Of a DNA stretch of 64,000 bases, positions 3 to 64,000 are shown piece by piece. Each line of letters opens with the position of its first letter. Positions within the stretch are counted from its first letter, which is position 1. The notes under the pieces were generated by a model. The model did no database searches, had not been told where the DNA came from, and worked only from the letters and a program-made list of their open reading frames with translations. The translations under genes and the position numbers were made by a program. The DNA is from Tubulanus polymorphus (taxonomy: Eukaryota > Animalia > Nemertea), in assembly GCF_964204645.1 (NCBI RefSeq), contig NC_134030.1, positions 15,624,110 to 15,688,109 of the forward strand. Reading direction: 5' to 3'.

Positions 3-2623
3 AAATATGATTACAAAAATAAAGTACCATTTGTAATATATGGAGATTTTGAATCATTAAATAAAGAATTAACAGATAAAGATAGAAAAGATATATATTA
101 TAAAAGAAAGAAATTAAATCTAATGAAAGTGATTATTCAGAAGAACCACCAAAAACAAATACTATTAAAAAGATTCATCAATCAGCTGCAGCTTTCGGGT
201 TATATATTAAATCTAATTATCCAGAACTAATTGAAAGTGAATATTATAATTACAGAAATGAAAATGTTATCAATCATTTTTGTGACTTATTAATTGAATA
301 TGAAATAAAATTTAATGAAAAGTTGAATAAAAATATAGAAATAATTATGACAGAAGAAGATAAAGAAGAATTTGAGTTTGCAGATAAATGTTATTATTGT
401 GAAAAGATATTTAATTATAAAGATAAAAAAGTAAGAGACCATGATCATTTGAATGGAAAGTTTAGAGGCGCTGCACATGAGAATTGTAACTTACAAGCTA
501 AGAAAATTAACTTTGTACCAGTTATATTTCATAACCTATCAGGATATGATGCACATTTATTTATCAAACAGCTATGTCATAAAATAGAAGAAATCAATAA
601 TGAAATAGAAATATTAAATTCAAATAGATCAAAAGATAAAATACCAACTTATAAATTTAGAATGTTAGCTAAAACATCTGAGAATTATATATCATTCCAA
701 TTTGGTTGTCTAAGATTTATAGATTCATATAGATTTTTAAATAGTTCATTAGATAACTTATCAAAATCATTAGTTGATGATGAATTGAAGATATTAAAAG
801 AATATTACCCAAATAATGATGATTTTCAATTAATGAGATATAAAGGCGCAATTCCATATTCTTTCAATAAAAATCATAATGATTTTAAAATAACTGAATT
901 ATTGAAAGAACAATTTTATGATGAATTAAAAAATGAATATGTTAAAGATGAAGTCTATAATAGAACATTGAATATTTGGAATCATTTCAAAATAGAAAAT
1001 CATGGGCAATTAGTAGATTTATATTTAAAATCAGATGTATTATTATTAACCGATATATTCGAAAGGTTTAGAGATGTAAACCTAAAATATTTCAATATTG
1101 ATCCTTGTCATTGTTATTCATCACCAGGATTAACATGGGATTGTGGATTAAAATTTACAGATATAAAAATGGATTTGTTAACAAATATAGATCAATTATT
1201 ATTATTTGAAAAATCTATAAGAGGAGGTGTTTCAGGTGTATTGGGTGATAGATATTTCAATGTAAATGATAATCCTGGATATAAATTATTATACATAGAT
1301 GCAAATAATCTTTATGGTTGGGCAATGATGGAACCACAACCTTATGGGATGTTTGAAATAACTGAAGTTTTACAAATTGATAAATTTGATTGGAAGAAAA
1401 GAATTCTAGATATTGCAGATGGTTCAGATACTGGTTACTTCTTTGTTGTAGATTTAGAATACCCTGAAAATATTAAATTCAAATCTAGAAATCTAGCATA
1501 TTGTCCCGAACATAAAACTGTTAAACATGAAGAATTATCAAATTATCAAAAAAGAATTAAACCCGATAATCATATTCATACTGAAAAGTTAATGGTAACT
1601 CAAGAAGATACATATAATTATGTAGTACATTATAGAATGTTGAAGTTTTATTTGAGACAAGGAATGATATTAAAAAAAGTACATAGATATATTTCATTCA
1701 GTCAATCTAAATGGTTAAAAAAATATATAGATTTTAATACTACACAGAGAACTAAATCTAAAACTGATTTTGAAAAAGATTTTTTTAAGTTAATGAATAA
1801 TGCATTCTATGGTAAGACTTGTGAAAATATTAGAAATAGAAATGATATTGAGTTAGTTAGTAATGGTAAAAGGATAAGGCATTTACAATCATATCCTAAG
1901 TTTATAGGTAACAGAATATTTGATGAAAATTTAGCTGCAGTTAAAATGAGGAGAACGTCTATTAAATTCAATAAACCTATATTTATTGGTTCGACTGTTT
2001 TAGAATTATCAAAGTTATTAATGTATAAATTTTACTATAACATATTACAACCCCATTTTGGAGAAAAGAATATAGAAATTCTATACTTTGATACAGATTC
2101 TTACATATTAAAGATAAAAACTGATAACATAACTGATGATTTAAAAACATTAAAACATCATTTTGATTTCAGTAACTATCCTAAAAATCATGAATTGTTT
2201 ACCAATGATAATAAAAAAGTTCCTGGGAAGTTTAAGGATGAATTAGGTGGTGAAGAAATGATAGAGTTCATTGGTATTAGATCTAAAATGTATAGTTATA
2301 AAACTAAAACTCATGAAGCTAAAAAGTTAAAAGGAATTACCAAAAGCGTTGTTGAAAAGAATATTAATTTCAAAGATTACATCAATTGTATATTTAATGA
2401 AGAAGTTAGAAAACATAAGATGAAATGTTTAAGATCTGAAGATCATGAAATGTATATTGAAGAAATAGAGAAGATAAGTTTGAATCCATTTGATGATAAA
2501 AGATATATTTTAGATGATGGAATCCACACAGTCGCCTATGGTTGCAATTTAGATGAATATATAAAATTCAAAAGAGAAGAAACAAAAGAAAATGAGATTA
2601 TGAAAAGGATTCTAACGTGTTAA
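3..2623 (+). CDS. polB: Protein-primed family B DNA polymerase (pPolB), 5' part outside window; frameshift near 118-121; EndoVII-like HNH domain inserted in exonuclease domain
   Basis: ExoI YGDFES (frame 3), ExoII FHNLSGYD, ExoIII YLKSD, palm DANNLY, KLMNNAFYGK, YFDTDS, KMY; CYYC..RDHDH..GKFRGAAH..CN insertion. Confidence 0.95.
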
Positions 2624-8056: not shown

Positions 8057-8101
8057 ACCATGATATCAAAAAATAAATAATTAATTTTTTTTGTTAAATA
8101 A

Positions 8102-9349: not shown

Positions 9350-9381
9350 AATTTTAACTTTAATAAAAATATATATAATAA

Positions 9382-10407: not shown

Positions 10408-10459
10408 TAAAGGTTGAAAATTGTATAAAATAATAGTAAATAAAAAAGGGGTTTTTAAG

Positions 10460-10620
10460 TATTAAGGTATCTAATAGGGTATTAGGGTATGTATCAGGTA
10501 TTAGGGTATCTAATAGGGTATCAGGTATTAGGGTATCAGGTATTAGGGTATCTAATGGGGTATTAGGTATTAGGGTATCTAATGGGGTATTAGGTATTAG
10601 GGTATCTAATACATAGGTAT
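10460..10620. repeat. GGTATTAG/GGTATC repeats with TATTAG-GGTAT-CTAATA mini-hairpins at the convergence of the two gene blocks
   Basis: Seen directly; shorter version at 19853-19960 in B. Confidence 0.85.
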
Positions 10621-10628
10621 ACAAATAG

Positions 10629-12324: not shown

Positions 12325-12327
12325 ATT

Positions 12328-13309: not shown

Positions 13310-13558
13310 TTATATTAGAGAAAAAAAGCAAAAAAAATATTATAAGTATTCTTCAAATGATACTAGATAGTTAAAGTTAAAGAACTCTAGTATTGACTAC
13401 TGATACTAGCTATTTGAATTTATAGAATTTCTATTCGGATCTATTCAAAATATAAAGTATTCTCTTTTTGAAAAGAAAATATTAAAAATATAATAGAATT
13501 CGCTAGCTAGTTGAAGTTATTGTTTTTTAAATACTTTTTATTTAAAATCTATTATTCT

Positions 13559-14221: not shown

Positions 14222-14416
14222 TTATTATACATATTTTTTTACTAAATTGGTTAATATTTTATAATCCTCTTCCATTTCTTCAACCAACGTCATCCTTTTT
14301 CATTCCTCGCTGCTTTTGGATAAGTCAGTTTCAATTCCTTGATATCTAAATAATACCACTGGGCAAAAACGCTCGGGTGAGAGCGAGTTGGCTTCTGCGC
14401 ATGCGCTCATTATAAT

Positions 14417-15345
14417 TGTCAAACAATTTATCATTTTAACTGTCAAACAATTTATCATTTTAACTGTCAAACAATTTATCATTTCAACTGTCAAACAATT
14501 TATCATTTTAACTGTCAAACAATTTATCATTTTAACTGTCAAACAATTTATCATTTCAACTGTCAAACAATTTATCATTTTAACTGTCAAACAATTTATC
14601 ATTTCAACTGTCAAACAATTTATCATTTCAACTGTCAAACAATTTATCATTTTAACTGTCAAACAATTTATCATTTCAACTGTCAAACAATTTATCATTT
14701 CAACTGTCAAAAAATTTATCATTTTAACTGTCAAACAATTTATCATTTCAACTGTTAAACAATTTATCATTTCAACTGTCAAACAATTTATCATTTTAAC
14801 TGCTAAACAATTTATCATTTCAACTGTCTTATCATTTCAACTGTTAAACAATTTATCATTTTAACTGTCAAACAATTTATCATTTCAACTGTCAAACAAT
14901 TTATCATTTCAACTGTCAAACAATTTATCATTTTAACTGTCAAACAATTTATCATTTTAACTGTCAAACAATTTATCATTTTAACTGTCAAACAATTTAT
15001 CATTTCAACTGTCAAACAATTTATCATTTTAACTGTCAAACAATTTATCATTTCAACTGTCAAACAATTTATCATTTCAACTGTCAAACAATTTATCATT
15101 TCAACTGTCAAACAATTTATCATTTCAACTGTCAAACAATTTATCATTTCAACTGTCAAACAATTTATCATTTTAACTGTCAAACAATTTATCATTTCAA
15201 CTGTCAAACAATTTATCATTTCAACTGTCAAACAATTTATCATTTTAACTGTCAAACAATTTATCATTTCAACTGTCAAACAATTTATCATTTCAACTGT
15301 CAAACAATTTATCATTTTAACTGTCAAACAATTTATCATTTCAAC
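14417..15345. repeat. 24-bp tandem array ACTGTCAAACAATTTATCATTT(T/C)A, ~39 units
   Basis: Seen directly; one truncated unit near 14828. Confidence 0.97.
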
Positions 15346-15401
15346 AGTCTATTAGATATTTAAATCATTTAACTCAATTCAATAATTATAATGTAGAATT
15401 G

Positions 15402-41049: not shown

Positions 41050-44000
41050 TATGGTAGTAGGGTGGGCACCGTGCAGCGGTTAAATCGCCATACTCTCCTT
41101 TCATTACCCATAACTGGTCGTCCAGCTGACATGTTTTACCTCGAATTTTGGTACTGCCGTTGTTTTTGATTTGTATTTTTAGCTTACCTTGTTGATATGG
41201 AATCAGACTCATGTTGGAACCGTCTGCAGGAGGCCCGACCGACCTGATGAACCTTCTGTGATTTCAGCACGTAGGAACCTGCTGTTCACCGACCTAGGCA
41301 AGTGTGTTGATTATTGAGCGAGTACCTTCGAATGGTTTAATCGCCTCTAATCTTCCCCCAGTGGAACATAAGCGTAGTGTTGGCGTATCAGTTGGGTCGC
41401 GTTGGATAATTGGATTTATTGCGAATTGCGAACTGTAAATACCGAATGTGTGCGAATGTGTGTGAAAGCTGTAGTTAATGACATCGGACACTGAATATCA
41501 ACCAGATATATGAATTGTAAATACTGGACGTATGTGCGGTCGTAAGCTATGCTTACGACACTTTTTGGAGTGGTGTAACGGGTCTCGTACCCGTTATTAT
41601 GTATGTAGTTTTCCGTCGATAATAAGTGTAATGTATAGTGTAATAAATCACCGCTAGGTGCGGTCTCTTAGAAGTGGAACCATTGTCCGAGTAAGTTCGT
41701 TGTTCTTTTGTTCGGGATACATTGCCCCTTTATAGCCTATGGTCGGAGCGTAAATCATCCTTGAAGGTGGTATTAGAGATTTAGAAGACAGGATTGTTAC
41801 AGAACATTTTCACTTTTCGCATTTATAATAACAACATCACCTTTCTGAGCATGAGCAAAGGGCTTTTGACCGGGAAGAGACCTTTCCCGCAAAGACACAA
41901 GATATTCCCTAGCCCATTGCTCTCTGAATTCCTTTATAACAGACGCGCACAACTTCGGCCGTTCCACAGCGATGTCCTGATTAATCCCGTACTCCGGATC
42001 TGAAGCGTCGTTAACACGGTAGGGCAGCGCTGTGATTTTCCGGCCGCAAACAAGATGCGAAGGCGTCAACGGTTCCAAATCGCTAATATCTGACGACTGA
42101 TACGTGAGAGGTCGATCGTTGATGGTAGCCTCTGCTTCAGTCACTATTGTACGAAATTCATCCACTGCTACCCTGGCACGACCTAAAACACTTTTCAACA
42201 CACGTATAGTCGAACCTACAAGTCGTTCGTAAAAACCCCCATGCTAAGGGGCACGTTTTACGATAAACTTCCACTGGACTCCCTGAATGGCCAAGTATTC
42301 TCTCAGGGAATCGAATATAGCTTTCAACTCGTCTCTGGCTGCATAAAATGTGCTTGCATTGTCAGATATCATTTTGTATGGAAGAGATTTACGAGCTGCG
42401 AATCTACGGAATGCCAAGATGAAACTACCAGTACCTAAATCTCTAACAACCTCGAGATGAGTTGCCCGACTGACCGCACAAGTGAATAATGCAATGTAAC
42501 ACTTCACCATCTCCGATTCATTACTTGACAAAATAACATTAAAATGACCACAAAAATCGACACCAGTGTACTGGAAAGCTGGTACATTTGAAACCCTGGG
42601 GTATGGCAAAGGAGGTGGAGTACGTGACCCGTAAGATGCACCCTCTAACTTTCTGCACAATACACAGGGTCTAATAACACGCTTTACACATTGCCTGATT
42701 TGAAGAATCCAGTACTCCTCTCTAATTGACGCCATCGTAGGATTAACCTTGAGATGTTTGACCTCGGCATGAGCTGCTAAAACTACAAGGTCCGTGAAAC
42801 GAGAATGTTTAGGTAGCCATAATGGATTGCGAGATGATGGCGGCAACTGAGAAAAATCCAGTCTTCCCCCACAACGAATAACACCAGACTCGTCTATATA
42901 CAAGCCCAACTGAGACACAATAAGTGGTCGTTTTGCTTTACCACTTTCAAAATAATCAAAAACATCTATGTAAGCTGCATGTTGCACGTATATAACCCAT
43001 ACGAGCTTGGATTCTTCAATTTCAGATGGCTCTAGTATATCACCACGACTCCTACGTTTTTGACAAATACCAATAAACCGCAAAACGTACGCGGTGACAC
43101 GCAATAGCTTTCTCAAACTAGAAATCCTGGTGATATCTATGAGCGGATCAATTTTACGATAACTACTAGACTCAGATGAAGTTTCATCTTCAACAACAGA
43201 ACATACAGGTAAATCAATTTACAGAGTCAACGCTATGTACAGAGGAAAAATCATTAACATCCCAAACCGGGAAATCACCTGTAACCAACCAATCTGGACC
43301 TTTCCACCACAGATTGTTTATCACAAGATCAGTGTAGTTACTACCGCGCGAAGAAATATCAGACGGGTTCGAATCCGGTGGACAGTAACCCCATGAATCG
43401 GATTCTGTCAACAGTTTAATCTCATCGATTCTTTTCTGTTCGAAGGGTTTAAGATTCTTCGCGTTTGACAATCGATATAACACGGATTGATTATCAGACC
43501 AGAGATAATATTTACAAGTAGGAAAACTTTCCTTCAACAGTTTCGCCAAACGCGCAGCTATTAACGCGGCCATTAACTCGAGCTGAGGAATAGTCAATGG
43601 TCTTACAGGTGCAACTCTCGACTTCGAAATTAACAAGCTACATTCGCGAGCAGGCGAGACAATGTATGCACAAGCGCCATAAGACGTAGCACTAGCATTG
43701 GCAAAAATATGGATCTCGCAGCCATTCAAAGACGACGTTTTATCAAAATATTTACGAGGATAAGGGATCAACGTTGCATTAGAAATATCGCTGGCGATCC
43801 TTGACCACTCTTCACGAAGAGTGTCGGGAATTGACGTATCCCAATCTAAATCTGCAAGTTTCCAAAGTATCTGCAATAACAACTTTACATTAAGTACAAC
43901 CGGAGCAATCCAACCAAGTGGATCGAAAACTTTAGAGGAATCGCTCAAAATTACGCGTTTTGTAACCACTTGATCAGAGGTAACATTGATATCTAACAGC

Positions 44001-45319
44001 TTAAGATTCAACTGGTCATTATCGAAAGGAAACCACTGAACACCGAGAAACTTAACGCAATTATCGCTTTCTGCTACTCCATCGCTGGACGCAGCATTCA
44101 TCAATAGATGACTGTTGCTCGACCAGCAGCGTAGATTGAAACCACCTAGCGCCATAATTCCGCGAGACTGCGAATAAAACTGCAGCATATCGAACTCGCT
44201 ATCAAAACTAACACCACAGTTGTCAACATAAATATTCTCTGCAATCAAACGACTAAGATCTGAATCACTGGCGCGTAAGTGTTTCAAAACAGTCGCGTTC
44301 AAAATCATAGGACTGCAGGTGGCACCAAAAAGAACCGCGCGAAAACGGTAAGTTATCAAGTCGCTGTCAGGATCAGACGGATCCGATAGCCAAAGAAAAC
44401 GCGTATAATCGCGATCGTGCTCATCCAGCTCGATCTGGAGGAACGCTTTTTCAATATCGGCGATTGCGGCAAAATTAAATGAACGGAAACGTAACAAAAT
44501 ACCAAGAATGTTGTTATGAAGACGCGGTCCTGTAAGTAGACAATCATTAAGACTAGTCTTTTCCGGCGTTTTACATGAAAAATCATATACTATCCTCAAC
44601 GGTGTTGTATTCGAATCCCTTAACACCGAGTGGTGTGGCAAATAATGACACGCGTCATTGACCGAAGCATCAGGAACTTTTTCGATAAAATTCCGTCTCT
44701 CCTGTTCAGCCATGAGCCTAGCGTAATAATCCAAATGACCGGTTTTGACAAGACGCTGAATCGTAGACAACGTGCGCCGTTTACATATATCGAAATTTGA
44801 AGTCTATAAAACATGATTGTGCTTCCACGGAAGTTTAGCGATATAACGATTATTCTCTAACCGAATGTAATTCTCGCAATTATCTTCAAACGCAAGCGAT
44901 GGATTCGGAGCGGTTTCATCAGATGGATGCGCGACGCCTAGAACATCTAGGTCCCACAATTTACACAGATCGGAATTTTCAGGTTCGCCGACTAAAACAC
45001 CGAGCGTAGTAATATCTCCATCAGAATCCCCTGCGACAGGACCCGATAAAAGATATCCGAGACGACTCTCGACCGCAACTGGACCGTCGCCAGTTGGACT
45101 ACGAATAAAACGACCTATAACTATACTATTGTAGTAATCATACCTATAAGTAAACCGATGTAGCCAGATTTAACCCTTCAAGGTAGCTATACGAATCTAA
45201 ATTGACATTTGTACGAATAGGTGGAGCACTAAAATCTGGAACTACATAAGCTTGCATTACGAGCTCAGTTTTATCCAAACATATCAGCTTGAAACGTACT
45301 ATGTCTAAAATACGGAGCA

Positions 45320-48090: not shown

Positions 48091-48308
48091 TAATTATTAT
48101 CATGGCCAGTTACTTTTACATCAGCTGACAAATAAATACTATTTGGAACATAAAATGTATTTTGATTTAATCTCGGGATTCTAACATATAAAGTTTCATC
48201 AGGATTAATATTAGAAGGATTATGAGTAATTATATGATGAGATCTCTCTGCTTTAATAGCATTAGATGTTCTAGAATTCTTAGAAGGATTGATATAACTC
48301 CCACTCAT
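48090..48308 (-). pseudogene. MCP N-terminal fragment
   Basis: Matches first ~72 aa of A MCP. Confidence 0.9.
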
Positions 48309-48337
48309 TTATTTAACAAAAAAAATTAATTATTATT

Positions 48338-49776
48338 TTTTTTTCATATTCACTAACCCAAAAATAATAGCACTAACAATTGTAATTAAAAATAAAATGA
48401 TATGTTCAGCAGCAAAACTAAGAATATTTCCAGCGGATTTTTATACAAAACCAACAATTGATGCTATAACTCCGGGTAAAGCGGCAGCAGATTTTTTAGA
48501 TAGTTCCCATAAATATTTTGCTAATTTTTTTAAACCATCCTTAACTTGTATTGAATTATTATTTGGAGGTGGTTTATCCGGTTTATTGGGAGTAGGTGAA
48601 GATTTCAATGAATTTGATATTGCTAAACCTATTGTTGTAAATAACATAGTAACAGCTGTCAAATTGAAAGAATTGTTATTCCTTCTAACTTAAATAATAA
48701 TTTTATTCTATCTTTTAATGATATTTCAGAATTTGGTTTTATCAACAAATTTTTGAAAATAACTTTTAATCTATTAATATTATAATCATATGATTTTTTT
48801 AATAATTTAATTTCTTCTTTCTGAAATTCTATGTTATATTCTAAATCATCTTTTTCTTTTTCTAAATATGCATTTCTTTTTTTAAATTCAATTTCTTCAA
48901 TAACTTTATTATCTCTATCTAATTTTAGTTGTTCTATTTCTTTAATTTTATCAGTTCTGTCTTTTTCTAAAGTTCTAATTTTAAAATTTCTTATACTTTT
49001 ATCATGCGCAAATTTATCAGCTTCATTTCTTATACTAATAATTTCTCTAATTGCTTTATCAGAAAATATATTTAAATCTTCTAATTCTTGATTTGTTGCA
49101 TCAAGTAATCCATTTGGTAAAAGTTTTTCAATTGGAACTTTATTTGATTTAAGTTTACTAGTTTAGGAAGTTATATGTTCAGAAGTTGTTTCTGTTTCTA
49201 AATTATCATTGATATATCATAGTTTCAAATAATTTATCAATTCTTTGTTTAAATACTCTTTTATCTTGATTTACTTCGTCTTGTGTTACATTTTCTATTT
49301 CATTGCTATTACTTATTCTTTTAATTCTAGATGATTCTAAATTACTCAAAGTTGATTCTGCTGATATTTTATTTTGATTTTTATAAGTGATATTAATATA
49401 ATAATCATCTTTCAAATGATAATAATATTCACCATCTAAAGATTTTGATTCTGTTACTAAAAGTGCCTCTGGCATTTATATTATACCCACATCTTTCAAA
49501 TATAGGTTTAGAATTATAGATATATTCATTATATTCTAATCTTTGTTTTACTAAATCTGGATTTTCATTTTCAGGATTTATTCTCGATTTAGTTCTTCTA
49601 TCAAATTCATCTGTTGATGGGTCTTTAGAACCACTATCTGCTAAATTAGAATTATACGCTGATCCATCATCATTATCAATATTAGTTTCTGCATCATTAT
49701 AATCATCATCAATATACCCATCATTATTATTTCCCATTTCTCCCATTTCATAATCTTCTCCACCTTCTAAATTCAT
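48338..49776 (-). pseudogene. Coiled-coil/TM gene homolog, multiple frameshifts
   Basis: Fragments match 6596-8056. Confidence 0.85.
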
Positions 49777-49792
49777 TTATATAATAAAAAGA

Positions 49793-51117
49793 TTAAAATT
49801 TAAAATATAATATTCCTCCTATTACAATTCCTATACAAGTAATAGCTAATTTAGTATTTTCATGAGATTTATCATCATTATCAGTTTTAATTATGTCATG
49901 TTGAACGATATCAGTTTTTATATTTTCTGTAGTATTGTAATCTTTTATTTTAGAATCATTACTCAATTTAATATTCTTAGTTTTAGTTTCTGTTGATTGA
50001 ATATGTTTTTTAATGTTTTCACCTTCCATTAATTTTGGAGCAGTAATAATCTTTTTATTTATATCATTCAATCCAAATGAATTATTTATTGTTGCAGTCT
50101 TAATTAAATTATTATAACCAATTATATTTCCCATCTTTAATACTAAATCATTAGAAATGATTAATAGATTAGGGCCTATACAATAATTTAATCTAATATG
50201 TGATTTATCTAAATAATTTTGGTACCTAACTATGTTTTCTGGAATCGATCTATTTTTATCATTATGAATGGAATCTTCAAATAAAACTTTTAAATTGTTT
50301 CTGCGCATCAAATGAAGTAATATCATTTCCAACTATTGGTGATCTTCTTTCAACTTACGCACCTAAAATACATATCAAATAAGTTCTAATAGATTGATTA
50401 ATTCTTTGTATACCCGATTTTGTAAAACCTTCACTATTTTCTAAAATAAAATTAATCCAACCATTACTATTATCAATTTTATAATAATGATTAGCTCCAA
50501 TTCTATGCATATAATCAATTCTTTTTATTTCATACTGTTCACCAATACCTTTCAATTTACTCTACATTGCTTCAATTACTTTACAATGCGCTCTAAAATC
50601 GGAATTATTACTTATATAAAATTCATTACATATTTTATAAAACTTAGATACATTGATATTATTGTCCAATTCTTTAAAATATTTAGATCCGGGCAAAGGA
50701 CATTCTAATTCATTTAATATTATTCTGATTTGAAAATACGTGTGAAATCTAAATATTGTGTGAATTAATTTTAAATCAGAATACTTCAAATTTTTATCTA
50801 AGTTATTTAAATGATTATTCCAACTTATACCACAGCCAGTTGTTGCACAATAAACAGCAAAATTTAATTGATTCTGTCAATATTTCATATTAGATTTTAC
50901 TTTATATATATGATATTCATCTCGAGTAAAAGTAACTTCATATGTATTAAATATATTTTCCAATTTAGAAATAAAAAACTGTGTTTCAGTAACATAAATT
51001 TCTAAATAAGTTAATGAATTTAAAACTAAATTTTCATATGTAATATTTTCATTAAAATCTATTGCAGGAATATTATATTTAATTGATTTATTATTGGAAA
51101 GCTTTTGGAAACCCCAT
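49793..51117 (-). pseudogene. 442-aa protein homolog, frameshifted
   Basis: Fragments match 5251-6579. Confidence 0.85.
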
Positions 51118-51133
51118 TTATATAATTAAAAAA

Positions 51134-51568
51134 TTAATAATTTATTAATTCTTTTAATAATTTATCCTGTTCTCCAACTGTTATATGACCATTTAAACTT
51201 ATTATATAATCTAGTGTATTTTTTAATTTATTAATTTCTTTTATATTAGTTTTAATTTTTTCTTTATTACTTTTTATATTTAATTTTGAACTTATACCTG
51301 TTAAAACACTTGATGATAATCCTAACACACCAATTGAGATAGCTAAAGGTGTTAATGGACTGAATATTGCTAAAAATGTTATTACAGAACTAACTGTAAC
51401 TGAACCACTAATAATAAAATAATACATAATTTCAGATTTTAAATATTTTTTCTTTTTTATCTTTAAGTCACTTTCAAATTCTAATATTTGTTTTTCTAAA
51501 TATGTTTTTAATTTAGTTTTATTTATATCATGAGGAATAATATCAATGTTATCAACTTTATCATCCAT
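51134..51568 (-). CDS. Two-TM protein homolog
   Basis: Matches 4800-5234. Confidence 0.85.
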   Translation of the reverse strand: MDDKVDNIDIIPHDINKTKLKTYLEKQILEFESDLKIKKKKYLKSEIMYYFIISGSVTVSSVITFLAIFSPLTPLAISIGVLGLSSSVLTGISSKLNIKSNKEKIKTNIKEINKLKNTLDYIISLNGHITVGEQDKLLKELINY

Positions 51569-51587
51569 TTATTTAGAAAAAAAATTA

Positions 51588-52010
51588 CTAATTAGTAAAT
51601 CTATACGCTACAAATATAACAAAAACTGTTCCACCTCAAATCCAAATTATTTCATATTTCTGTTGTTCTTTACTTGGGGTATAATAATCTGATAATTTAG
51701 GTTTGTATAGATGTAATTTTTCTTTATTGGTTACCGCGTTATATAAACTCATTGCATCATCAACTGATTGAAAATCTCTATGAGAAATTTTCTGATCATA
51801 TAATTCTTTATTGATGTAATCCATATAATTTTGTCTTTTTTCTCTATATTCTTCTGCTGCTTTATTGTATTTCTCTAATGCTAAGTTATGTCTTTTTTGT
51901 TCTGATAGTGATCCATTTTTATCAACATGCTTAAATAAATAACCACCACCAGTAAATGCTAAAGCGTTCACTATTGCTGACCCTATTATAGTTATACTTG
52001 CAGAAGCCAT
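51588..52010 (-). pseudogene. 140-aa membrane protein homolog, premature stop at 51636
   Basis: Matches 4358-4780. Confidence 0.85.
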
Positions 52011-52034
52011 TTATTTAACAAAAAAATTACGCAT

Positions 52035-52259
52035 TTATATAGAAGGAATATATTTTTGTTTTTCTAAATAATCAATAGTTAAATTAGATAAAGCAACTGC
52101 AAGCGTTTTAAATTTTTAAATATCATTTATATCAAATCTATCAACATTAACACTTCCCATTTTAAATACTTTTTTTAATACCATTGAATAACCAACAGTT
52201 CCCACTGATAATAATGCTCCATTATATAAACCAGTTATTATCCACTTCTGATCCACCAT
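52035..52259 (-). pseudogene. 70-aa membrane protein homolog with in-frame stop
   Basis: MVDQKWIITGLYNGALLSVG... Confidence 0.8.
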
Positions 52260-52601
52260 TTATTTAGAAAAAAAATTACTATCTTCAAAATATTCAGTTA
52301 TCTTATTTATGATTATTTCAACATTTATTTCATTACTACTTTTATGATTATCATATATTTTAGATAATATATTTTTAATATCATCGATAATTCCATCTTC
52401 ATTAAATTCATGATATTCTAAAAGTGTTTTGATTAAATCAATTACTTTTTCTATATTATAATTTTCTTTATTAATCATTGATGCATTATTAAATGATTTA
52501 CTTTTAATATCAGTAATTACATCATTTAGTTGAATTCTAATTTCTTTACCATATTTAAAATCAAACCCGAAACATATACTCGGTCCTACTGTTATATTCA
52601 T
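52260..52601 (-). CDS. Hypothetical protein homolog (113 aa)
   Basis: Matches 3773-4120. Confidence 0.8.
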   Translation of the reverse strand: MNITVGPSICFGFDFKYGKEIRIQLNDVITDIKSKSFNNASMINKENYNIEKVIDLIKTLLEYHEFNEDGIIDDIKNILSKIYDNHKSSNEINVEIIINKITEYFEDSNFFSK

Positions 52602-52617
52602 TTATATAGTGAAAAAA

Positions 52618-53250
52618 TTATTCTTTACATCTTATAACTAATTCATAAGTTACAGGGAAATTATTTAAATCAATTAAGTATCCATTATGATTTCTAATTT
52701 CTAATCTAAAATTATTAAATTTAGGAATGCATGGTTTGAAATCACACTCAGCTAAATTATAATTTATTTGCGCTCCAAATTCTTTAACATTCTTTAACAT
52801 ATTTGTAAAAGATCTATCTGGAGGAATTCCTAACAGTTTAGCTATAGGTTTTTTTACCATAAATTTATGATTTTCAATATCAGCCAACCTTACCTTTATT
52901 TTGTTAGAACTCTCACTTTTTAAAAATTTAATATTAAACCCGGAATTATTACCTGACTTGTGCCAGGCTTTTCTATTAATTTCTTGTGCCAATGTATCTA
53001 AAATATATAACCCTGGTTTTAAATATATATAGGCCCATTCATTTTTATTTTTATTAAAAATTAAAAAGGCTCTATGTTCAACAGTTTTATTCGATATATT
53101 GTAAAATGAGTTACATAAACTAATATTTACTAATTTTTAATCTACACAATTATTAAATTCTCTATCTAATTGTACTAATAAATTATGTGATTTATAATTT
53201 TTAAGTCTTCTAGAATCAACAAATATTCTACATTCTTTAAATCAACCCAT
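52618..53250 (-). pseudogene. Penton homolog with internal deletion/frameshifts
   Basis: Matches 3011-3755. Confidence 0.78.
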
Positions 53251-53318
53251 TATTTATAGAACAAAAATATTACCTCTCATCACTAAAAATTAATTTTAAT
53301 AAAATTTTTCCTTAATAA

Positions 53319-54564
53319 ATGGATGAGAAGATACCATGTGAAATTTGTGGTGAACTTCTAAGAAAAAGTAATATGGCTCGACATATGAAAAAAAACATGA
53401 TAAAAATTATAAGCCCCCTAAACTAAACTGCCCAAATTGTAATAAATTATTCTCAAGAAATCATGTTAAAAAACATTTAGAGAAGTGTAAAATTAATGAC
53501 GCAACGGTTAATGTTGATAGTAATGAAAGTAATAGTAATTCTGTTGAAGTTGAATCTGAAATTATTTGGAAAAGACCTTTCTTATTCTATGATAAGGGTA
53601 ATATAAAAGATTATTTCTGTGAGCCTTGTCGAATAAAATATAGCCCTGGAAATATAGAAGATTGGGAGAATCTTCAATTTCGTAAAGTACATATAGATAA
53701 AATTTCTAATAAATTTGAAACTGAATTCAATGAAAGAAAAAATAATATATTAGAAAAAATGAAATATGAGAAAACGTTACCAGATAATGAAGAAACACTT
53801 AAAAGTTGGAAAAACAATATAATGAATTAGTACGAAAAACATATTATTGTAAATATTGTAAATTGATTATTACACCCAGTAATTTAAATCTACATAATAG
53901 AACAATAAAACATAAAGAAAACGTAAGTAAATACCAAGAACTTAATGAAGATCTATTACCAAGATATGATAGAAAAACAATGTATTTATGGGCACTTAAG
54001 CCAAGAAGGTCCTGTGTTATTTTTTAATGAATGTGGATGGCAAAAAAAATTTATGGGGTGATGAAAAAACTAGAGATATTCCTTTAGAACCAAAATTAAA
54101 ATATCTAGATGAAATTTTTAAGATATTTTCTATGGAAGATCATACACCAGAATATTAGCAATGGCTTGAAAAAATGAAAATGATAGAAAATAAAAATGGT
54201 GAAATAACTAAAAAAGATATAATAAAAACAATTATTCCGTCAACATTTAACACACGAGAAAAGAAAATGTATTTATATCTATTATTTAACGATTACTATA
54301 AAAAAAAAACCTAAATTAACAGAAGAAGATATGGAAAATATAAAAGAAACATTCAAAAAAATATTAAGATATTATGTGGATAATAGAATAACAGATTCAA
54401 TTAATTATGAATTCTTTTTAAATAAGATTGTAAATCTTTTAAACATCGATATTATAATTCCATTTGATGAATTAACAAACAAAAAGAAACAAAGAGAGCG
54501 AGATGAAATAAAGTACAATATAGAACTTTATTTAAACGAAAAAAAATTAAATGGAAGAACCTAA
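53319..54564 (+). pseudogene. Multi-C2H2 zinc-finger gene, frameshifted, opposite orientation to neighbours
   Basis: CEIC..RHMKKKH, CPNC..KHLEKC, CEPC, CKYC..HNRTIKH; TAAATG start. Confidence 0.7.
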
Positions 54565-54627
54565 ACAATTAAATAAAAATGAAGAAACCAGTAGTGATTT
54601 CGAGTATGATGATCTTGATTTTATGTT

Positions 54628-57600
54628 TTAATAACCATAAGGTAATGTTTTTATTCCATCACCTAAAATATATCTTTTATCATCGAATGGATTTAAACTA
54701 GTTTTTTCAACTTCATTAATGTACATCTCGTAATCTTCTGATCTTAAACAATTCATTTTATGTTTCATTACAAATGAGTTATATAAACACTTTATATAAT
54801 CTTGAAATTCTATATGTTTATCAATCACATGTTTTGTTATTCCTTTTAACTTTTTAGCTTCATGATCTTTTGTTCTATAACTATACATTTTACTTCTTAT
54901 CCCAACAAATTCAATCATTTCATCACCCCCTAATTCATCTTTAAACTTACCAGGAATCTTTTTATTATCATTGCTAAATAGTTCATGATCTTTGGGATAA
55001 TTGCTGAAATCAAAATGATCTTTTAATGTTTTTAATGTCTTTTGTTATGTCATTTGTCTTGATTTTTAGTATGTAGGCGTCAGTATTGACCGCTATTAAT
55101 GGTAATCCACAGTTAAATGTTCCATCTTCAGTTTATAAATCATAAACATAATCTGATGGATTATATATTTCAAATAAATCTCTAACTTCTTCAGTTAAAT
55201 CTTTTTCTGTATGCCTTAAATTAAAATTAATTCCACCTCTAATTGATTTTTCAAATAATAAAGCCATGTCTGGTTCTTTTAATAAATCTAATTCTACGTT
55301 TGTATATTTTAAACCACATTGCCAAGTTAAACCAGGACTTGAATAACAATAACAAGGATCAACATTAAAATGATTCAAATTAACTTCTCTAAATTTATCA
55401 GCCAATATCATAACATCTGATTTTAAACATAATTCTACTAATTTACCATGATTTTTTATCTTAAAGTGATTCCAAATATTTAATGTTCTATTAAACACTT
55501 CATCTTTCACATACTCCTCTTTTAATTGATCATAAAATTGTTCTTTTGATAATTCTGTTACATTAAAATCATCATGCGTTTTATAAAATGAATAAGGAAT
55601 TGCGCCTTTATATCTCAATAATTCAAAATCTTGTTCATTTGGATAATAATGTTGAGTTATTATAAAATCATTATCAACTAAACCTTTTGCTAAATTATCT
55701 AATGAACTTGCTAGAAATCTATAAGAATCCAAAAATCAAATGCAAACAAAATGAAATGAAATATAATTTTCAGATGTCTTAGCTAATAGTTTAAAATCAT
55801 ATTTTCTTACATTTGCGCCATTCATAGCATTATATTCTTCTATATCTTGATTAATTGCGCCCAATTTTCCCGATAATTGTTTTATAAATAGATGGGTATC
55901 ATAGCCTGATAAATTATGAAATAATATTGGTACGAAATTAACTTTCTTAGCTTGTAAATTACAATCTTCATGAGCAGCTCCGCGGTATTTTGAATTTAAA
56001 TGATCATGATCTCTAACTTTTTTATCAAATGAATAAAAACGTTTTTCACAATAACAACAATGAGTTGCATGATTAACATCAATTTCATCTTCTTTTGTCA
56101 CAACTATTCCTTTATTTTTGTTTAATAATTCTGCAAAATCACTTTCTAATTGAATTATTTTATTACAAAAATCATTAACTACATTTTCACCTCTAAAAGA
56201 AATATATTGACTTTCATATAATTCGGGATAATTTGATTTTATGTAAATTCCATAAGCAGCAGCTCTTTGATGAACTTTTTAAATTGTGTTTATGATTGGT
56301 GGGTCTTGATTTATGTCTTCATTTAATTCATTTCCTTTATCCATTGATTTTAAAAATTGCTTTTTGTTATATATTTCTTTTCTATCTTGATCAGTTAATT
56401 CTTAATTCAACGATTCAAAATCCCCATAAATTACAAATGGAACAATATTCTTAAATTTATGATTAGTAAATTTCAACTTACAATCTTTTTTTGTTGGCAT
56501 TATTAATTTACAAAAATCTTTATTATCACATAATTCTTTATGTTTTAATAATGTATTCTCAGTCATAAATTTAGAAAAACATTTTCTACATAGATAAATT
56601 TTACGATGATGATCACTTTCTGTTCTAAAGAATAAATCAATTTGTTTTAACCACATATAATGTTCATTTTCATCTTTTTTGTAATATAACAAATCTATAG
56701 CATTTTCATCATCATAATATTCTGTTAAATATAAAGCTTCTAATGTATAATCTTTAATATTTTCACCTTTTGTCTTTGGTAATTGCATTAATTCAAATAC
56801 ATTTATTTTTAAATTATTAACTTGTTCTATTTTAGGAATCATCTTTATAGTTACTGGATATTGATCAATTTCATATAATGTTTCATATTTCCGGTAATTT
56901 GTTATTCTAAATCTATGCGTAATATCTTCTGTTGGGTGTAAGCAACTAATAATTGACCATAGAAAACATGTATTATCTTCATTTTGAACATTTATTACTG
57001 CTTTTGTTCTAAATGGTTATTTTATATAACTTGATGCTTTAATATCCTTTTCTGTAGTAAAGTTTGAATCATTTTTAAACATTGTTTTACTTTTTGATGT
57101 TTTATTCATTTTTGTATTATAAACATTTAAATCTAAAAATATAATTTCATTCAATCTTAAACCAGAACCCTCAAAATATCTTTCTTCAATATGACGTTTA
57201 AATTCATTAAATATTTTTTCTAACTTCTCTTTTATTTGTGTTTTTGAAATTATTTCTTCAGAGAGTGTTTGAATATTATAATCCATTTTCTCTTCTGACT
57301 TACTTTTCCAGAGATGCTAATTTTTGGATATTCAACATCTGTTATCAAATCTAATATTTTCCCATTATTTCATTAAATTTACTATAATCTTCTATTTTTG
57401 TACCTTTAAAAAATCTAAATTATAATGGCTGCAGGACCAATTTTACTATGTAATGTTTCTAAAATTTTAATTGTATCTTATTTCTAGTGAATCGATATAA
57501 TTTCTAACATTTTCCATGTAATGTTTATTTGAAATGGATTTAGTTTTTGAAGTTGGTTTTTTTACTTGTTGAGGTTTATCATCGAAATAATCTATTCCTA

Positions 57601-57901
57601 AAACATTATTACTCAAATTATGATGGTGTCTTTGTGATTCGAGATGTCTTTTATAATTCCGTTTTACTATAAATTCATTACAAACTTCACATTTTATTTC
57701 GTCTTTTTTCATATCATCTAATCGTTCTTTTCTTTCACTTGAATTTTCTGGAGTTTCAAAATCTATAACATTTTTTATATGATTTGCAGTTTTTTCATGA
57801 CGTGCTTTATGAGATTTATCAATGTATTTTTTACAATATGTACAATAATATTGATTTTCATTAACATCAATTTGTTCTGTGTGTTGTTCACTCTCTCCCA
57901 T
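54628..57901 (-). pseudogene. polB: pPolB of element D: N-terminal zinc fingers, OTU-like protease motif, exonuclease with EndoVII; palm largely deleted; intein remnant
   Basis: NEDNTCFLWS...HYMW; YGDFES; RDHDH; FHNLSGYD; TDAYIL; KMY. Confidence 0.9.
55085..55229 (-). other. C-terminal remnant of an intein at the pPolB D|TD site
   Basis: ..EEVRDLFEIYNPSDYVYDL*TEDGTFNCGLPLIAVN|TDAYILKIKT: block F/G, terminal Asn, +1 Thr; absent from A (YFDTDSYILKIKT). Confidence 0.8.
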
Positions 57902-59462
57902 TTATAAGAAAAAAAAATTACTTGTGGTGATGAGTGGGGATTACTTCCCCTTGTATATAACAAACACGCAATCAACCGTTCTCGTCCAAGCCTCGCTACA
58001 TCTATCTATCCGAGCATGGTTGCTTTCGCAATCACTGTACTACAGTATTAGCAAACGCGCTAATAACCGTTCTCGCTAGTGCCTAGCTGTGATGAGAGGT
58101 GTCTCGCCCTCTCGCCCTCTGGTATGAAAGCCACAATTTCCAATTACTGAGGCCACGTGTCATCTTAAATTGAAATCACCACATTTCAATTAAAGATGAC
58201 ACGTAACCTCATATCAAATGATATGAACGCAACATAGCCTATTTATTCATTTTCTTACGAGGATGGGTCTCCATATTCATAAGATAGGAGAATTGTGGGT
58301 TTGAATGATGAATACAACTGATAAAGCGCCAATTTCACTGATTCTTGCATATAAATGTTCAAAGGCGCTATAGAGTAATCGAGTAAACAGGTGTGTTTTT
58401 AGGAGTCTTTTGAATTTAAATTCAAATCGGGTGTTCATGACGACTATAATTGCGCATTCTAGGGCTGGAGCAAGAAACGTGTGGGATCGTCCGCCAACGT
58501 ATCGCCAAGGAGGTAATAAGGAGCCGCCAAGGAGGTAATAAGGAGCCAGTCCGTGGTGGCTATTGAAAGCGACGACCGCATATAAATGCATTGATTGAAT
58601 GACATCTCAAAAGTCAGAGTGTATAAAATTGAAAATGATATATGGATAGGTTATTCCATATATGCTGGTAAAAATGACCCAATATGTGATATAAATGTTC
58701 AATCAAAAAGTAGAAACTGAAACCATAATTCAGTATGGTATTGTTACAATATCAAACACTCAAATTCAATCCCTTGTTAAATTGGTAGCCAGTGCAGATG
58801 AGCAAGTATTTTGGTCCCTAATTTTAGTTATCGTAATAATTCAAGCCACGCGATTTTGAACTGTTCAACGAGTTTGTGTAAAGATGATGAGTTTGAAATG
58901 GAGTGGAATTCAGATAATACTGTTTGCATGTTATCACTCAATCTTTTTATCAATCATAGAAATTTTTGGTAAAATATTTGACTCTACGGTTGGTTTTACG
59001 CTCTCCACGCCAGAGGTAATCACGGATATCGGACTACAAAAAATTCCTTGTGTAAAGCTCAACTTTATAAATTCCTGGAAAAGCTCGCCTCGGATATTTA
59101 AATAATGATTAAACATTAATTTTCCCAACGAAAAACCTAAACAACCAATGTACACTTGCTTTAATTGACAATGCACTATCGTTGCATTTTCTAGCTATTT
59201 GTACTGTTTGTGATATGATTGTGTATATATACATCAATAAAAGTAGTTCCAAGTATGGCGGTCGTTCTTGTCATGTGTTTTTGTTATCTGACGCTCTGAC
59301 AGTCGAATATATTTCAAGTCCTGATATCGGAGGACATCATAACATGGTGGCAGCGGAAACAATAGACGCCAGAGATCATCCGGAACGCAGTAAGTCATCT
59401 TGCCGAGGCTTATGTAGATGTAGTTGGTTAAACTGTTAACTTCGAATATCGGATGTCATCGA
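57637..59462. repeat. Left arm of near-identical inverted duplication (partner 62175-64000, likely continues beyond window)
   Basis: Mirror ORFs; coordinates sum to 121637; only two substitutions noticed. Confidence 0.95.
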
Positions 59463-60110
59463 ATATATTTTCTTACATCTTCCATGTATGGTCTTCTATT
59501 GTTTAATTTATTTTTTATGCTTTTAATTGTCTTCTGTTTCTTATCATTATCTTTATCAAAATAATCTTCACCTAAAATATCATTATTCTTATTTCTAATA
59601 TGACTTTTAGATTTTAAATGTTCTTTATAATATCTTTTATCACTGAATGATTGATCACACGTATCACATTTGTATGTTTCTTTTTCATTCTTTAATTTCA
59701 TCTAATTTAGTTTCTAATATATCATCTTCATATTCTAATTTCAATTTATTCTCTAAATGTGTTTTAGTTTTATTGTGTCTTGCTTTTTGGGATTTATCTA
59801 TATTGATATTACATGTTGGACAGTAGTACTTATTTGCTTCCATTTTAATACTAAATTTTTTATTAAAATTGACTTTAGAAGTTCAATGATTTATATCATG
59901 TATTATTTCAATCACACTTTACTAACACTTTTAATGTTTAAAATCTAACTCACACAAATATGAATATTGAAATAATGTTGTAAATATATACTTTTATATT
60001 GAATAATCTATCAATTTAAATGTTATTCATTTACATGAATATTTTAAGAGTAATAAGGGTAATGGGCTTTCATATCAAAGGTTGAAGGGTCGAGTTCATT
60101 AAAAACAAAT
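59463..60110 (-). mobile_element. Polinton-like fragment E: pPolB 5' end (ATG 59843, two zinc fingers) and subterminal region
   Basis: MEANKYYCPTC..RHNKTKTH; CDTC..HLKSKSH; 59860-60090 matches 27670-27970. Confidence 0.75.
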
Positions 60111-60269: not shown

Positions 60270-62428
60270 TCTGATGTATAGCGTCGACCTTTTTATTGCC
60301 TTCAAGAGTTCGCAGACATTTTCTACTCTCTGCGACAGCTTCATATTTCCTTCCGAATTTCAGAAGTTCGTCAATCTTGAAGCCTTTAGCCGTGTCCAGG
60401 ATTCATCAAAAGGAGTCGATGCAGTGACCAGTTCTTTGATACGCTCGGCCTTCTCTTCTTCTGTGAAATCACATTCCTTGGCCTTTGTCAAACACCTGGT
60501 CGCAAAATCGTCCAAGGTCTCCGCCTCATACTGTCGGAATCTCAGCAGTTCAAGTCTATGTATTCTAAAGTTGACCTTGACTCTCAGTTGGTCTTCGAAA
60601 AATGTCCATAAAATCTCTGGATCGTTTTGCTCTGCCTCCGTCAGTCCGGATGCGTTTATTCTCCGTAGGCCCTGAGCCCCGACTGCAATTTTGATTTTGA
60701 CAGCTACTCTCGTGCTATCCTTGATACCCTGGTCGGTAACACACAACTGGACCCTTTGCTTAAAGATTCTTAACTCCCCAGCCAGGTCAGATGAGTCCCA
60801 ATTCATTTCTGGTATTTTGGACATTATGACAATTTAACATGTGATGTAAATATCAACAATTACAATTTAATATTACCTCTACTCTTAAAATTAATAAAAC
60901 TATGGTGAATTATACACGATGGAAGTTATCTGCTATCTATCAATACTTAATCATTAAAAAAAATTATATAAGTTGAATTAATGTCCGTTATTTAAACAGC
61001 AGCCAATATAGAATAAGAAATAATGCACAGTTCTTATTTTAAAATACGTGATCAACGAGTGAACCGGATTGAAAGTCACACTGAACAAAATCTTAATTTT
61101 TTAATCAGCGACGAGTTGTCTGTAACAGAGATAACCAGCAATACTGAAGAACATTCGTCCACCAGGATCAGCATAAATGCGTCTCTATGTCCACCGTTGA
61201 ATGTACCGTATATCGCTGTTACACGTCCGTAAGATATATCACTGACGAGAAATCAGGGGCGGATCCAGGGGGATGGGTAGACAGTATTGGAAGGAAATTT
61301 AAGGGCACCTTTCTGATCTTAGGGCACACCCAGTATCCAGGTCAATGCGAGCGCCGAAGGCGCGAAGTCCTCAGAGGGGGGTCTGGGAAACGAATTCGAG
61401 ACAATATTTCAACAGATGCGGATAAAAAATGAAGCTGGCGAACCCATGAAAGAATGGTTGTCGCCAACTTCGCCTAGTGCCCCTATAATCTTTAAAAGTG
61501 CCCCTTAACAATTTATACAGAATACGGCTAAGTGCCCCTTCATTGTTAACAATCGGCAAAAATTGCCTCGTCTTCACATTTATCCTTATGTCGTGTGCCG
61601 GTCTACCAAACCAAAAGTGCCCCTAAAATTTTAAAAATTAGGCCAAAAAGTGCCCTTTTCCTCAACATTTTCCGCGTATAGTGCCCTCTTCTAAAGTACG
61701 AGTGCCCCTTTAGCCCTCCCTGAAAAGGCAAGGACAAGGTGCCCTCATCTAAAGCATGAGTGCCCCTTGCAAAAGGAAAGTACCCTTTTTAATTTATCAT
61801 GATTAAAGGCTTTACCAATATGATTATCTCTCCTCACTTTCTCGGCAGCAGTATATACCGATTAATTTTATTATTATGCCCGGATTACGGACACGGAATT
61901 AGCTGTTGCTGAAATAATGCCGTCAAAAATATTGCCGGTGAAATTTCGAAGGGCACTTAAAAATTCTAGACCGTATTGGGCAATACGGCTAATACGGTCT
62001 GGATCCGCCCCTGGAAATCACCACACTGCAGACATGTCCCTCTTCACCAGAACAGCGTTTCGATCACAGTCGTTTCTACGAAGAAGCAGCAAACCTCCGT
62101 TGCGCCATCAATCGACGGGAAGCACCGTTAATGCACGGTTGCGAAACATCCGATTGCGAAATAGCAAGCAGCAATCGATGACATCCGATATTCGAAGTTA
62201 ACAGTTTAACCAACTACATCTACATAAGCCTCGGCAAGATGACTTACTGCGTTCCGGATGATCTCTGGCGTCTATTGTTTCCGCTGCCACCATGTTATGA
62301 TGTCCTCCGATATCAGGACTTGAAATATATTCGACTGTCAGAGCGTCAGATAACAAAAACACATGACAAGAACGACCGCCATACTTGGAACTACTTTTAT
62401 TGATGTATATATACACAATCATATCACA
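60270..62428 (-). mobile_element. gag: Gypsy 5' end: probable LTR (~62293-62428), tRNA-Leu PBS, leader, truncated gag (60360-60824)
   Basis: CATAACA-TGGTGGCAGCGG on minus strand; FRQxExETLDDFxTR Gag motif; LTR start uncertain. Confidence 0.75.
61254..62013. mobile_element. MITE with CAGGGGCGGATCCAG TIRs and internal GTGCCC repeats
   Basis: 15-bp TIRs; flanking GAAAT direct repeat. Confidence 0.8.
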
Positions 62429-63204
62429 AACAGTACAAATAGCTAGAAAATGCAACGATAGTGCATTGTCAATTAAAGCAAGTGTACATTGGTTGTTTAG
62501 GTTTTTCGTTGGGAAAATTAATGTTTAATCATTATTTAAATATCCGAGGCGAGCTTTTCCAGGAATTTATAAAGTTGAGCTTTACACAAGGAATTTTTTG
62601 TAGTCCGATATCCGTGATTACCTCTGGCGTGGAGAGCGTAAAACCAACCGTAGAGTCAAATATTTTACCAAAAATTTCTATGATTGATAAAAAGATTGAG
62701 TGATAACATGCAAACAGTATTATCTGAATTCCACTCCATTTCAAACTCATCATCTTTACACAAACTCGTTGAACAGTTCAAAATCGCGTGGCTTGAATTA
62801 TTACGATAACTAAAATTAGGGACCAAAATACTTGCTCATCTGCACTGGCTACCAATTTAACAAGGGATTGAATTTGAGTGTTTGATATTGTAACAATACC
62901 ATACTGAATTATGGTTTCAGTTTCTACTTTTTGATTGAACATTTATATCACATATTGGGTCATTTTTACCAGCATATATGGAATAACCTATCCATATATC
63001 ATTTTCAATTTTATACACTCTGACTTTTGAGATGTCATTCAATCAATGCATTTATATGCGGTCGTCGCTTTCAATAGCCACCACGGACTGGCTCCTTATT
63101 ACCTCCTTGGCGGCTCCTTATTACCTCCTTGGCGATACGTTGGCGGACGATCCCACACGTTTCTTGCTCCAGCCCTAGAATGCGCAATTATAGTCGTCAT
63201 GAAC

Positions 63205-63340
63205 ACCCGATTTGAATTTAAATTCAAAAGACTCCTAAAAACACACCTGTTTACTCGATTACTCTATAGCGCCTTTGAACATTTATATGCAAGAATCAGT
63301 GAAATTGGCGCTTTATCAGTTGTATTCATCATTCAAACCC
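63205..63340 (+). mobile_element. 3' end fragment of an L2/CR1-type LINE (mirror at ~58297-58432)
   Basis: FKFKRLLKTHLF ORF2-like end followed by AGCGCC..GGCGCT stem. Confidence 0.45.
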
Positions 63341-63488
63341 ACAATTCTCCTATCTTATGAATATGGAGACCCATCCTCGTAAGAAAATGAATAAATAGGC
63401 TATGTTGCGTTCATATCATTTGATATGAGGTTACGTGTCATCTTTAATTGAAATGTGGTGATTTCAATTTAAGATGACACGTGGCCTC

Positions 63489-64000
63489 AGTAATTGGAAA
63501 TTGTGGCTTTCATACCAGAGGGCGAGAGGGCGAGACACCTCTCATCACAGCTAGGCACTAGCGAGAACGGTTATTAGCGCGTTTGCTATTACTGTAGTAC
63601 AGTGATTGCGAAAGCAACCATGCTCGGATAGATAGATGTAGCGAGGCTTGGACGAGAACGGTTGATTGCGTGTTTGTTATATACAAGGGGAAGTAATCCC
63701 CACTCATCACCACAAGTAATTTTTTTTTCTTATAAATGGGAGAGAGTGAACAACACACAGAACAAATTGATGTTAATGAAAATCAATATTATTGTACATA
63801 TTGTAAAAAATACATTGATAAATCTCATAAAGCACGTCATGAAAAAACTGCAAATCATATAAAAAATGTTATAGATTTTGAAACTCCAGAAAATTCAAGT
63901 GAAAGAAAAGAACGATTAGATGATATGAAAAAAAACGAAATAAAATGTGAAGTTTGTAATGAATTTATAGTAAAACGGAATTATAAAAGACATCTCGAAT
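63489..64000 (+). mobile_element. Element D' left terminus and pPolB start (ATG 63736), inverted duplicate of D
   Basis: Reverse complement of 57637-58148. Confidence 0.9.

Follow-up and report, generated by a model that had tools for sequence, protein, structure and literature searches.

Jeong et al. are said to have found HNH and VSR nucleases inserted in the protein-primed family B DNA polymerases (pPolBs) of Polintons. Krupovic et al. suggested that endonuclease insertions in pPolBs result from intein invasions (PMC11071308). On an intein in a Polinton or a protein-primed polymerase the searchable literature, beyond which lie Repbase, InBase, subscription papers and bioRxiv supplements, gave one speculative sentence. 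The words intein, Hint and LAGLIDADG do not occur in the main text and one supplement of PMC10748475, nor does intein in the main texts of PMC8502044 (and one supplement), PMC8097293, PMC10120064 and PMC11296320; PMC12220804 and PMC3671162 offer general mentions only. Eukaryotic inteins are described from fungal and protist nuclei, algal plastids and nucleocytoviruses (PMC5784728; PMC10710043), and virus-like DNA polymerase inteins from nuclear scaffolds of Klebsormidium, Tetrabaena and a labyrinthulomycete (PMC10710043; Polintons are not mentioned there or in two of its supplements). The pol-c site of family B polymerases (PolBs) is defined as YGD|TDS (PMC549080). A pol-c intein is a known kind of element; for a protein-primed Polinton polymerase as its host we found no report.

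In the window analysed, a stretch of 64,000 nucleotides, Ty3/gypsy and BEL/Pao retrotransposons are interspersed with several Polinton copies. The host is likely an animal: the main sign of this in the window is the BEL/Pao element, as BEL/Pao elements are a metazoan subclass (PMC3118150), and named relatives of the polymerase occur in a sea spider and a coral. The hallmark genes of a Polinton (pPolB, integrase, ATPase and, probably, capsid) are present in copy A (Table 1). Copy D, at approximately 48091-57901 on the minus strand, has eight genes in common with A, the capsid being partial. Paired ends of D, with terminal inverted repeats and a 6-bp target duplication, were not found; the copy is truncated near 48091 and its other end lies inside a 1.8-kb inverted duplication. 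This duplication, of 1826 nt, includes the 5′ end of D, and between its arms (59462-59834) there is another pPolB start fragment on the minus strand. Several genes are 84-94% identical between A (104-9349) and D (48091-57901) and parts of one gene 67-90%, but the polymerase and the two genes behind it only 53-78%. Because identity differs by gene in this way, the mosaic suggests module exchange. A long tandem array with a 24-nt unit, open in several frames, lies beside A at 14300-15360.

Table 1. Positions of the features discussed, numbered from the first nucleotide of the window (A and D, Polinton copies).
Feature	Position	Strand	Evidence
A, pPolB, intein-free, cut by the window start	104..2623	+	PF03175, E 4e-16
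A, probable double jelly-roll capsid	8102-9349	+	Atlas look-alikes only (score 0.98), 10-24% of the cluster members having capsid families
A, A32 ATPase	10629-11243	-	PF04665
A, rve integrase with chromodomain	11236-12327	-	PF00665
BEL/Pao retrotransposon	41797..45169	-	PF05380, E 4e-44
Rest of D, with homologues of seven genes of A; of the capsid gene, where the copy ends, only the first 68 codons	48091..54627	-	
D, pPolB C-terminal part; frameshift near 55040	54628..55084	-	78% to A, 83% to P0152
D, C-extein start, Thr-Asp-Ala (+1 Thr nucleophile; second half of motif C)	55076..55084	-	Aligns with TDS of A
D, 49-codon intein remnant, from the end of the linker between endonuclease and Hint through block F (VYD motif) and block G to the terminal Asn	55085..55231	-	
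D, in-frame stop inside remnant block F, read as X	55133..55135	-	
D, pPolB N-terminal part, to KSIRGG	55232..57901	-	tblastn with P0152 residues 12-895, 63%
D, TAAATG at the polymerase start codon; context common to most A and D genes	57899..57904	-	
Inverted duplicate (99.9%) of 57637-59462; another D-type polymerase gene starts in it and runs past the window end	62175..64000	+	

The A polymerase reads YFD|TDSYILKIKT, with the empty site between positions 2092 and 2093. On the minus strand of D, KSIRGG (ending at 55232) is followed by 49 in-frame codons that lack a pPolB counterpart (55231-55085) and then by TDAYILKIKT. The original prediction had noted a foreign segment here in place of the YFD of A, and the locus reads as described. 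The span then given, 55085..55229, needs a small correction, the foreign segment beginning at approximately 55231-55225: the left edge of a deletion in the polymerase is at about 55232-55226, and homology to the intein of P0122, an over-long relative of the A polymerase, starts at 55225. A residues ~377-663, comprising palm and fingers, have no match in D. The proposal that a deletion from IRGG took the palm and most of the intein holds, the deletion starting just after IRGG.

The segment 55085-55231 is confirmed as the C-terminal end of a pol-c intein. It displays the VYD motif of block F and, for block G, Asn as the last residue with Thr at +1. The insertion point falls between the first Asp and the TD of polymerase motif C, which is the pol-c site. 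Motif C is xxD|TD[SA] in 123 intein-free pPolBs and D resumes at its Thr; TDA also follows the intein in P0154, an intein-bearing fragment. The closest inteins are those of other Polintons, 64-66% identical over 47 residues, with 31 of 47 shared with the end of the P0122 intein (pairwise E 7e-19) and 30 of 47 with that of P0154. For an independent control profile we took the C-terminal 55 residues of 77 PolB inteins from outside Polintons. The remnant scores 37.4 bits against this profile, compared to 10.0 for the best of 5000 shuffles (4851 reported), and is the sole significant domain for that profile across the six frames of the window (i-E 4e-9). The blocks F and G claimed from the letters alone are upheld by profile score, by similarity to P0122 and by the register of the +1 Thr.

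The profile check proposed at the outset gave a divided answer, positive with this custom PolB-intein profile but negative with curated collections, as the remnant matches no intein family in Pfam and nothing in NCBIfam. It has no PDB match at E<=10, a word-seeded search yielded none from eight candidates, and the window holds no second copy of the segment. Phmmer returned nine matches, four of them intein ends followed by TD (P0154, P0157, P0159 and P0161) and three repeat proteins. The penultimate Val had been raised as an objection. In 77 related inteins that position is occupied by K (42), H (16), S (9), F (7) or Q, N and L (one each) and never by Val; because the residue varies so much, Val is unusual yet does not disqualify the segment, and we reject the objection.

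The intein of copy D survives only as a fossil and no longer works. The N-terminal splicing region (blocks A and B) is deleted and block F carries one stop. The D polymerase occupies a single frame from the ATG at 57901, with 11 stops listed ahead of the remnant (stop list 57499-55011). Copy D is dead; because of the deletion, the accumulated stops and the frameshift it makes neither polymerase nor splicing product. After integration D underwent a deletion of ~590 codons that joined IRGG to the intein tail, with stops and frameshift to follow; it took ~288 polymerase codons and, provided that the intein had the length of that in P0122, ~305 of intein. In a post hoc inspection we note that the first 21 codons after the remnant (55022-55084, minus strand) have a GC3 of 0.38 (8/21), a value reached in none of 819 windows of 21 codons in A and none of 675 in the N-terminal part of the D polymerase, and that this tract matches A at only 31 of 45 nt. 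Possibly it was co-converted from the intein donor.

Does an intact form of the intein exist in this polymerase family? A search for over-long relatives of the A polymerase gave 14 proteins. Four of these (P0122, P0123, P0127 and P0129) carry PF14890 and PF14528, a full Hint-LAGLIDADG intein, so that intein-bearing alleles of the family, and full polymerases with an intein N-terminus directly after the Asp, exist as predicted. The inserts are 337-354 residues long, that of P0122 being complete at 354, and have the form D|S...N|TD at motif C. Ser1, TxxH in block B, the block F Asp, the terminal Asn and the +1 Thr occur in all four, as do two intact LAGLIDADG helices; S1, H87, D336 and N354 are invariant over 46 aligned rows. 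PF14528 is above its cut-off in every carrier. PF14890 matches each at 25-30 bits (E 5e-7 to 1e-5), below the curated cut-off of 35.8, as it is also in several giant-virus relatives, and TIGR01445 passes its cut-off in two of the four. A model of the P0122 intein (pLDDT 90) finds its best PDB matches in the TliVMA, PI-PkoII, PhoVMA and PI-PfuI inteins (E 3e-17 to 3e-13), the top five being archaeal and yeast inteins with endonuclease. Judged by sequence and model the carrier inteins look canonical and are predicted to be self-splicing.

The hosts are Polinton polymerases. The C-exteins of P0122, P0123, P0127 and P0129 score 175-222 bits on a Polinton pPolB profile (106-222 when P0154 is included) and all five are below 5 bits on a giant-virus PolB profile. 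The triplets at the end of the N-exteins are YGD, ASD, SSD or FTD; YGD precedes the intein in P0122 only (one of the four) and is found in none of the 123 intein-free pPolBs. The longest contigs of intact carriers are 4.8-13 kb, whilst the intein-bearing fragment P0144 is on a 30-kb contig. No locus for P0127 was found in viral or genome contigs and none for P0154 in viral contigs, where a search with a degenerate intein-end motif also returned nothing. Related intein ends are present in P0157 and P0159, the C-exteins of which fit neither the Polinton nor the giant-virus profile well. P0157 is likened to another pPolB type solely by Atlas look-alikes; as its C-extein resembles that type, a second class of Polintons may have received the intein.

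Since the full insert splits motif C, a replicating carrier needs splicing. Class 1 splicing is predicted to free an active polymerase with the motif restored. The endonuclease would cut the empty sites of co-resident Polintons, into which the intein would then be copied by gene conversion.

Passage of the intein among Polinton polymerases by homing is likely. One 90% cluster contains the occupied P0127, P0137 and P0138 (three full) and the empty P0136 and P0142. When the intein is taken out of P0127, the remaining 1256 residues match those of intein-free P0136 except for three, located at -3, +4 and +5 of the site. This difference is likely a homing footprint, and the pattern is the expected residue of co-converted flanks or of a cleavage-resistant empty allele. 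A tree of the N-terminal extein (28 rows) separates D, P0122, P0123/P0129 and P0127 into four supported clades, all of which also include intein-free members; P0152 and P0005, the sisters of D, are both empty. The inteins of P0122, P0154, P0123 and P0129, four of the five Polinton rows, form a single clade (support 100/99). The direct donor to D was probably another Polinton, because the remnant is closest to the P0154 and P0122 inteins although the exteins of P0122 are just 49% and 59% identical to those of D. Copy A, which had been called an intein-free allele of the same locus, is intein-free but not an allele, being a related family with 64% and 78% amino-acid identity to the two parts of the D polymerase; intein-free P0152 is nearer to D.

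An alternative is that the intein is an old resident, acquired once at an early stage and inherited vertically with many losses, and that there is little homing today. A single clade for all four Polinton inteins is not rejected by the AU test (p 0.535), which does not tell one capture from two, the inteins of P0122 and P0123/P0129 are just 43-44% identical, a deep split like that of the exteins, and a patchy distribution also fits acquisition with repeated loss. Against this, the D remnant is 66% identical to the P0122 end, compared to 49% and 59% for the exteins of P0122 and 71% and 83% for those of intein-free P0152, with the caveat that intein ends are conserved anyway. In addition P0127 and P0136 differ only beside the site, and both LAGLIDADG motifs are intact in the carriers. 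None of 120 listed relatives of near length shows an intein, in a length range that omits most full carriers. We consider long residence with little homing unlikely.

Turning to the origin of the family, we scanned viral and metagenome contigs with the four Polinton inteins as seeds and obtained 114 and 280 relatives, respectively. From each set the best 80 were kept, representing 79 + 79 loci; clustering at 90% and removal of a mis-cut row (L018) left 80 non-redundant relatives. The collections scanned were viral, metagenome and prokaryotic. The 80 occupy PolB at xxD|TDS (77) or topoisomerase II (3), which puts the Polinton inteins nearer to known pol-c inteins than to those of different insertion sites. 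The best non-Polinton matches are PolB inteins at YGD|TDS with 40-47% identity over the full length. Giant-virus MAG labels are attached to 29 of the 79 viral loci and, of ten host proteins checked, nine are PF00136 PolB and one is topoisomerase II; inspection of junctions revealed no Polinton-like host among the kept loci. Prokaryotic genomes contributed 22 weak matches, the best with E 5e-14. By sequence comparison the nearest non-Polinton kin are giant-virus PolB inteins, and archaeal matches are weak.

Three observations on these viral loci may be recorded. L013 (1576-8184) and L094 (2841-8684) contain viral-type PolB genes with two inteins, at SAN|S and YGD|S. L053 (8276-13183), L056 and L074 carry relatives of the pol-c intein in topoisomerase II, inserted at DQD|S...N|TDG; this is the second case of a D|TD site reached by a non-allelic jump. 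The PolB-ORF intein of L003 (570-2627), L115, L052, L043 and kin begins just ~70-100 residues past the preceding stop, which suggests that the polymerase gene is split in that viral clade.

A quick tree for 84 rows and a careful tree on a 41-row subset, neither with a validated root, place the Polinton inteins amid viral inteins, with the base not resolved and no supported sister. Since base and root are not settled, the trees point to no donor lineage or direction. The phylogeny that had been proposed against giant-virus PolB inteins thus places the Polinton inteins among them but yields no supported sister. Two independent captures, with P0127 apart, were hinted at by BLAST ranks and the wording of block G, and the AU test does not support them. 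Among giant-virus PolBs, P0161 has the best short match to the remnant (18/23), but its intein is degenerate, sits on a long branch and is not supported as the sister. Comparison of the empty site of A with 91 giant-virus flanks gives up to 15 identical nt of 18 and a mean of 12.5. For Mimivirus and archaea, Ogata et al. judged 5-7 mismatches in the flanks too many (PMC549080); the match here is closer, although the coded motif accounts for much of it.

The most economical reading, and one we regard as probable, is that the intein moved from a giant virus to a Polinton. First entry would have been from a nucleocytovirus in a co-infected cell, and this contact would lie further back than the direct donor to D. 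The giant-virus link of the original prediction accordingly survives as nearest kinship outside Polintons, but not as the immediate source, which was probably a Polinton, nor with a rooted direction. Could the source have been something else, such as a protist nuclear polymerase, an archaeon or another mobile element, or might the transfer have been from Polinton to giant virus? The unrooted tree with its poorly resolved base leaves room for this, inteins of Anaeramoeba nuclear polymerases exist (PMC10710043) outside the collections scanned, and the TAAATG starts of Polintons, considered below, are atypical of the loci with the nearest inteins. Nevertheless the one or two Polinton lineages stand amid 77 distinct pol-c inteins of giant-virus type, whilst archaeal matches are far weaker, and we judge such origins very unlikely. 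That unrelated DNA at the deletion junction, or an assembly chimera, resembles an intein by chance is scarcely credible, for although the remnant alone lacks a Pfam, NCBIfam or PDB match, it has 66% identity to the terminal part of a complete intein from the same family of polymerases and stands in exact +1 Thr register, the shuffle control refutes chance, its composition is like that of the flanks (24.5% G+C; GC3 0.08 compared to 0.11) and a chimera would still require an intein-bearing Polinton in the sample.

We conclude with good confidence that the remnant is the end of a Hint-LAGLIDADG intein at the D|TD site of a Polinton pPolB, that the family likely came from giant-virus PolB and likely spreads by homing, and that intact copies are predicted to splice. 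The intein had been discussed against the background of animal nuclear genes; it resides in a virus-like element, the Polinton, and not in a host gene.

A feature of the start codons touches on the same question. TAAATG, which we take to be the poxvirus late initiator, begins 13 of 16 A ORFs of more than 100 codons and 5 of 7 in D, including the polymerase, against a background of 47 of 551 ATGs in A, a count made post hoc. These starts (2600-14300 and 48000-58000) sit behind a T- or A-rich run. At loci with the nearest inteins the median share of TAAATG is 0.09 (98 loci). A tie between TAAATG and the intein donor is unsupported, as the motif is not typical of the nearest-intein loci and viral inteins are recorded from four families, Poxviridae absent (PMC5784728). 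Since those loci do not share the motif, the helper and the donor need not be one virus. The occlusion bodies of entomopoxviruses are known to contain Polinton-like viruses (PMC11296320). Tentatively, and with less than even confidence, a wider picture may be drawn: animal Polintons would replicate in the manner of virophages in nucleocytovirus infections, would have caught the pol-c intein there as what is now an active homing element among their lineages, and would have carried it into animal chromosomes, TAAATG being a promoter read by the helper. If true, this would make it the first family of true inteins in the nuclear DNA of animals.

Homing requires donor and target DNA in one cell, and for this reason the intein is a physical marker of co-residence. 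The marker bears on two questions, contact between replicating animal Polintons and giant viruses, and recombination of different Polinton lineages within one cell. The near-identical occupied and empty alleles make homing directly testable. The interest of the window is that a dead copy reveals a living intein family. Crossing from an RNA-primed PolB to a protein-primed pPolB would represent homing across very distant polymerases; Ogata et al. deemed such distant homing implausible for archaea and Mimivirus (PMC549080).

How does the locus compare with the systems described? The Polinton pPolBs with nuclease insertions share with the present case an endonuclease in the polymerase, but the available texts on them name no Hint domain or splice junction, whereas here a complete, canonical intein splits a catalytic motif. 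The cases in PMC10710043 are alike in that an intein-bearing viral polymerase is integrated in a eukaryotic chromosome; the hosts reported there are algae and a protist, here it is a Polinton in a likely animal genome. Among viral sequences the closest are the nucleocytovirus PolB inteins from IMG/VR and metagenomes (L001-L158; P0161). They share a block G of the type F-N-x-G-F-P-L-I (L002, L010, L096 and P0161), while the Polinton inteins make up a clade of their own (100/99 for four of five rows) without a supported sister among them.

The pol-c inteins of Mimivirus PolB and of archaeal PolI (site III) are alike in the xxD|TD site, Ser1, the terminal Asn, the +1 Thr and the LAGLIDADG endonuclease (PMC549080). 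The lengths agree also, 351 residues in Mimivirus (PMC549080) compared to 337-354 in Polintons. The known hosts of pol-c inteins are RNA-primed PolBs (PF00136), whereas here the host is the protein-primed pPolB (PF03175 type) of an integrating Polinton. The N-extein triplets here are YGD, ASD, SSD or FTD, and the copy in the window is a chromosomal fossil.
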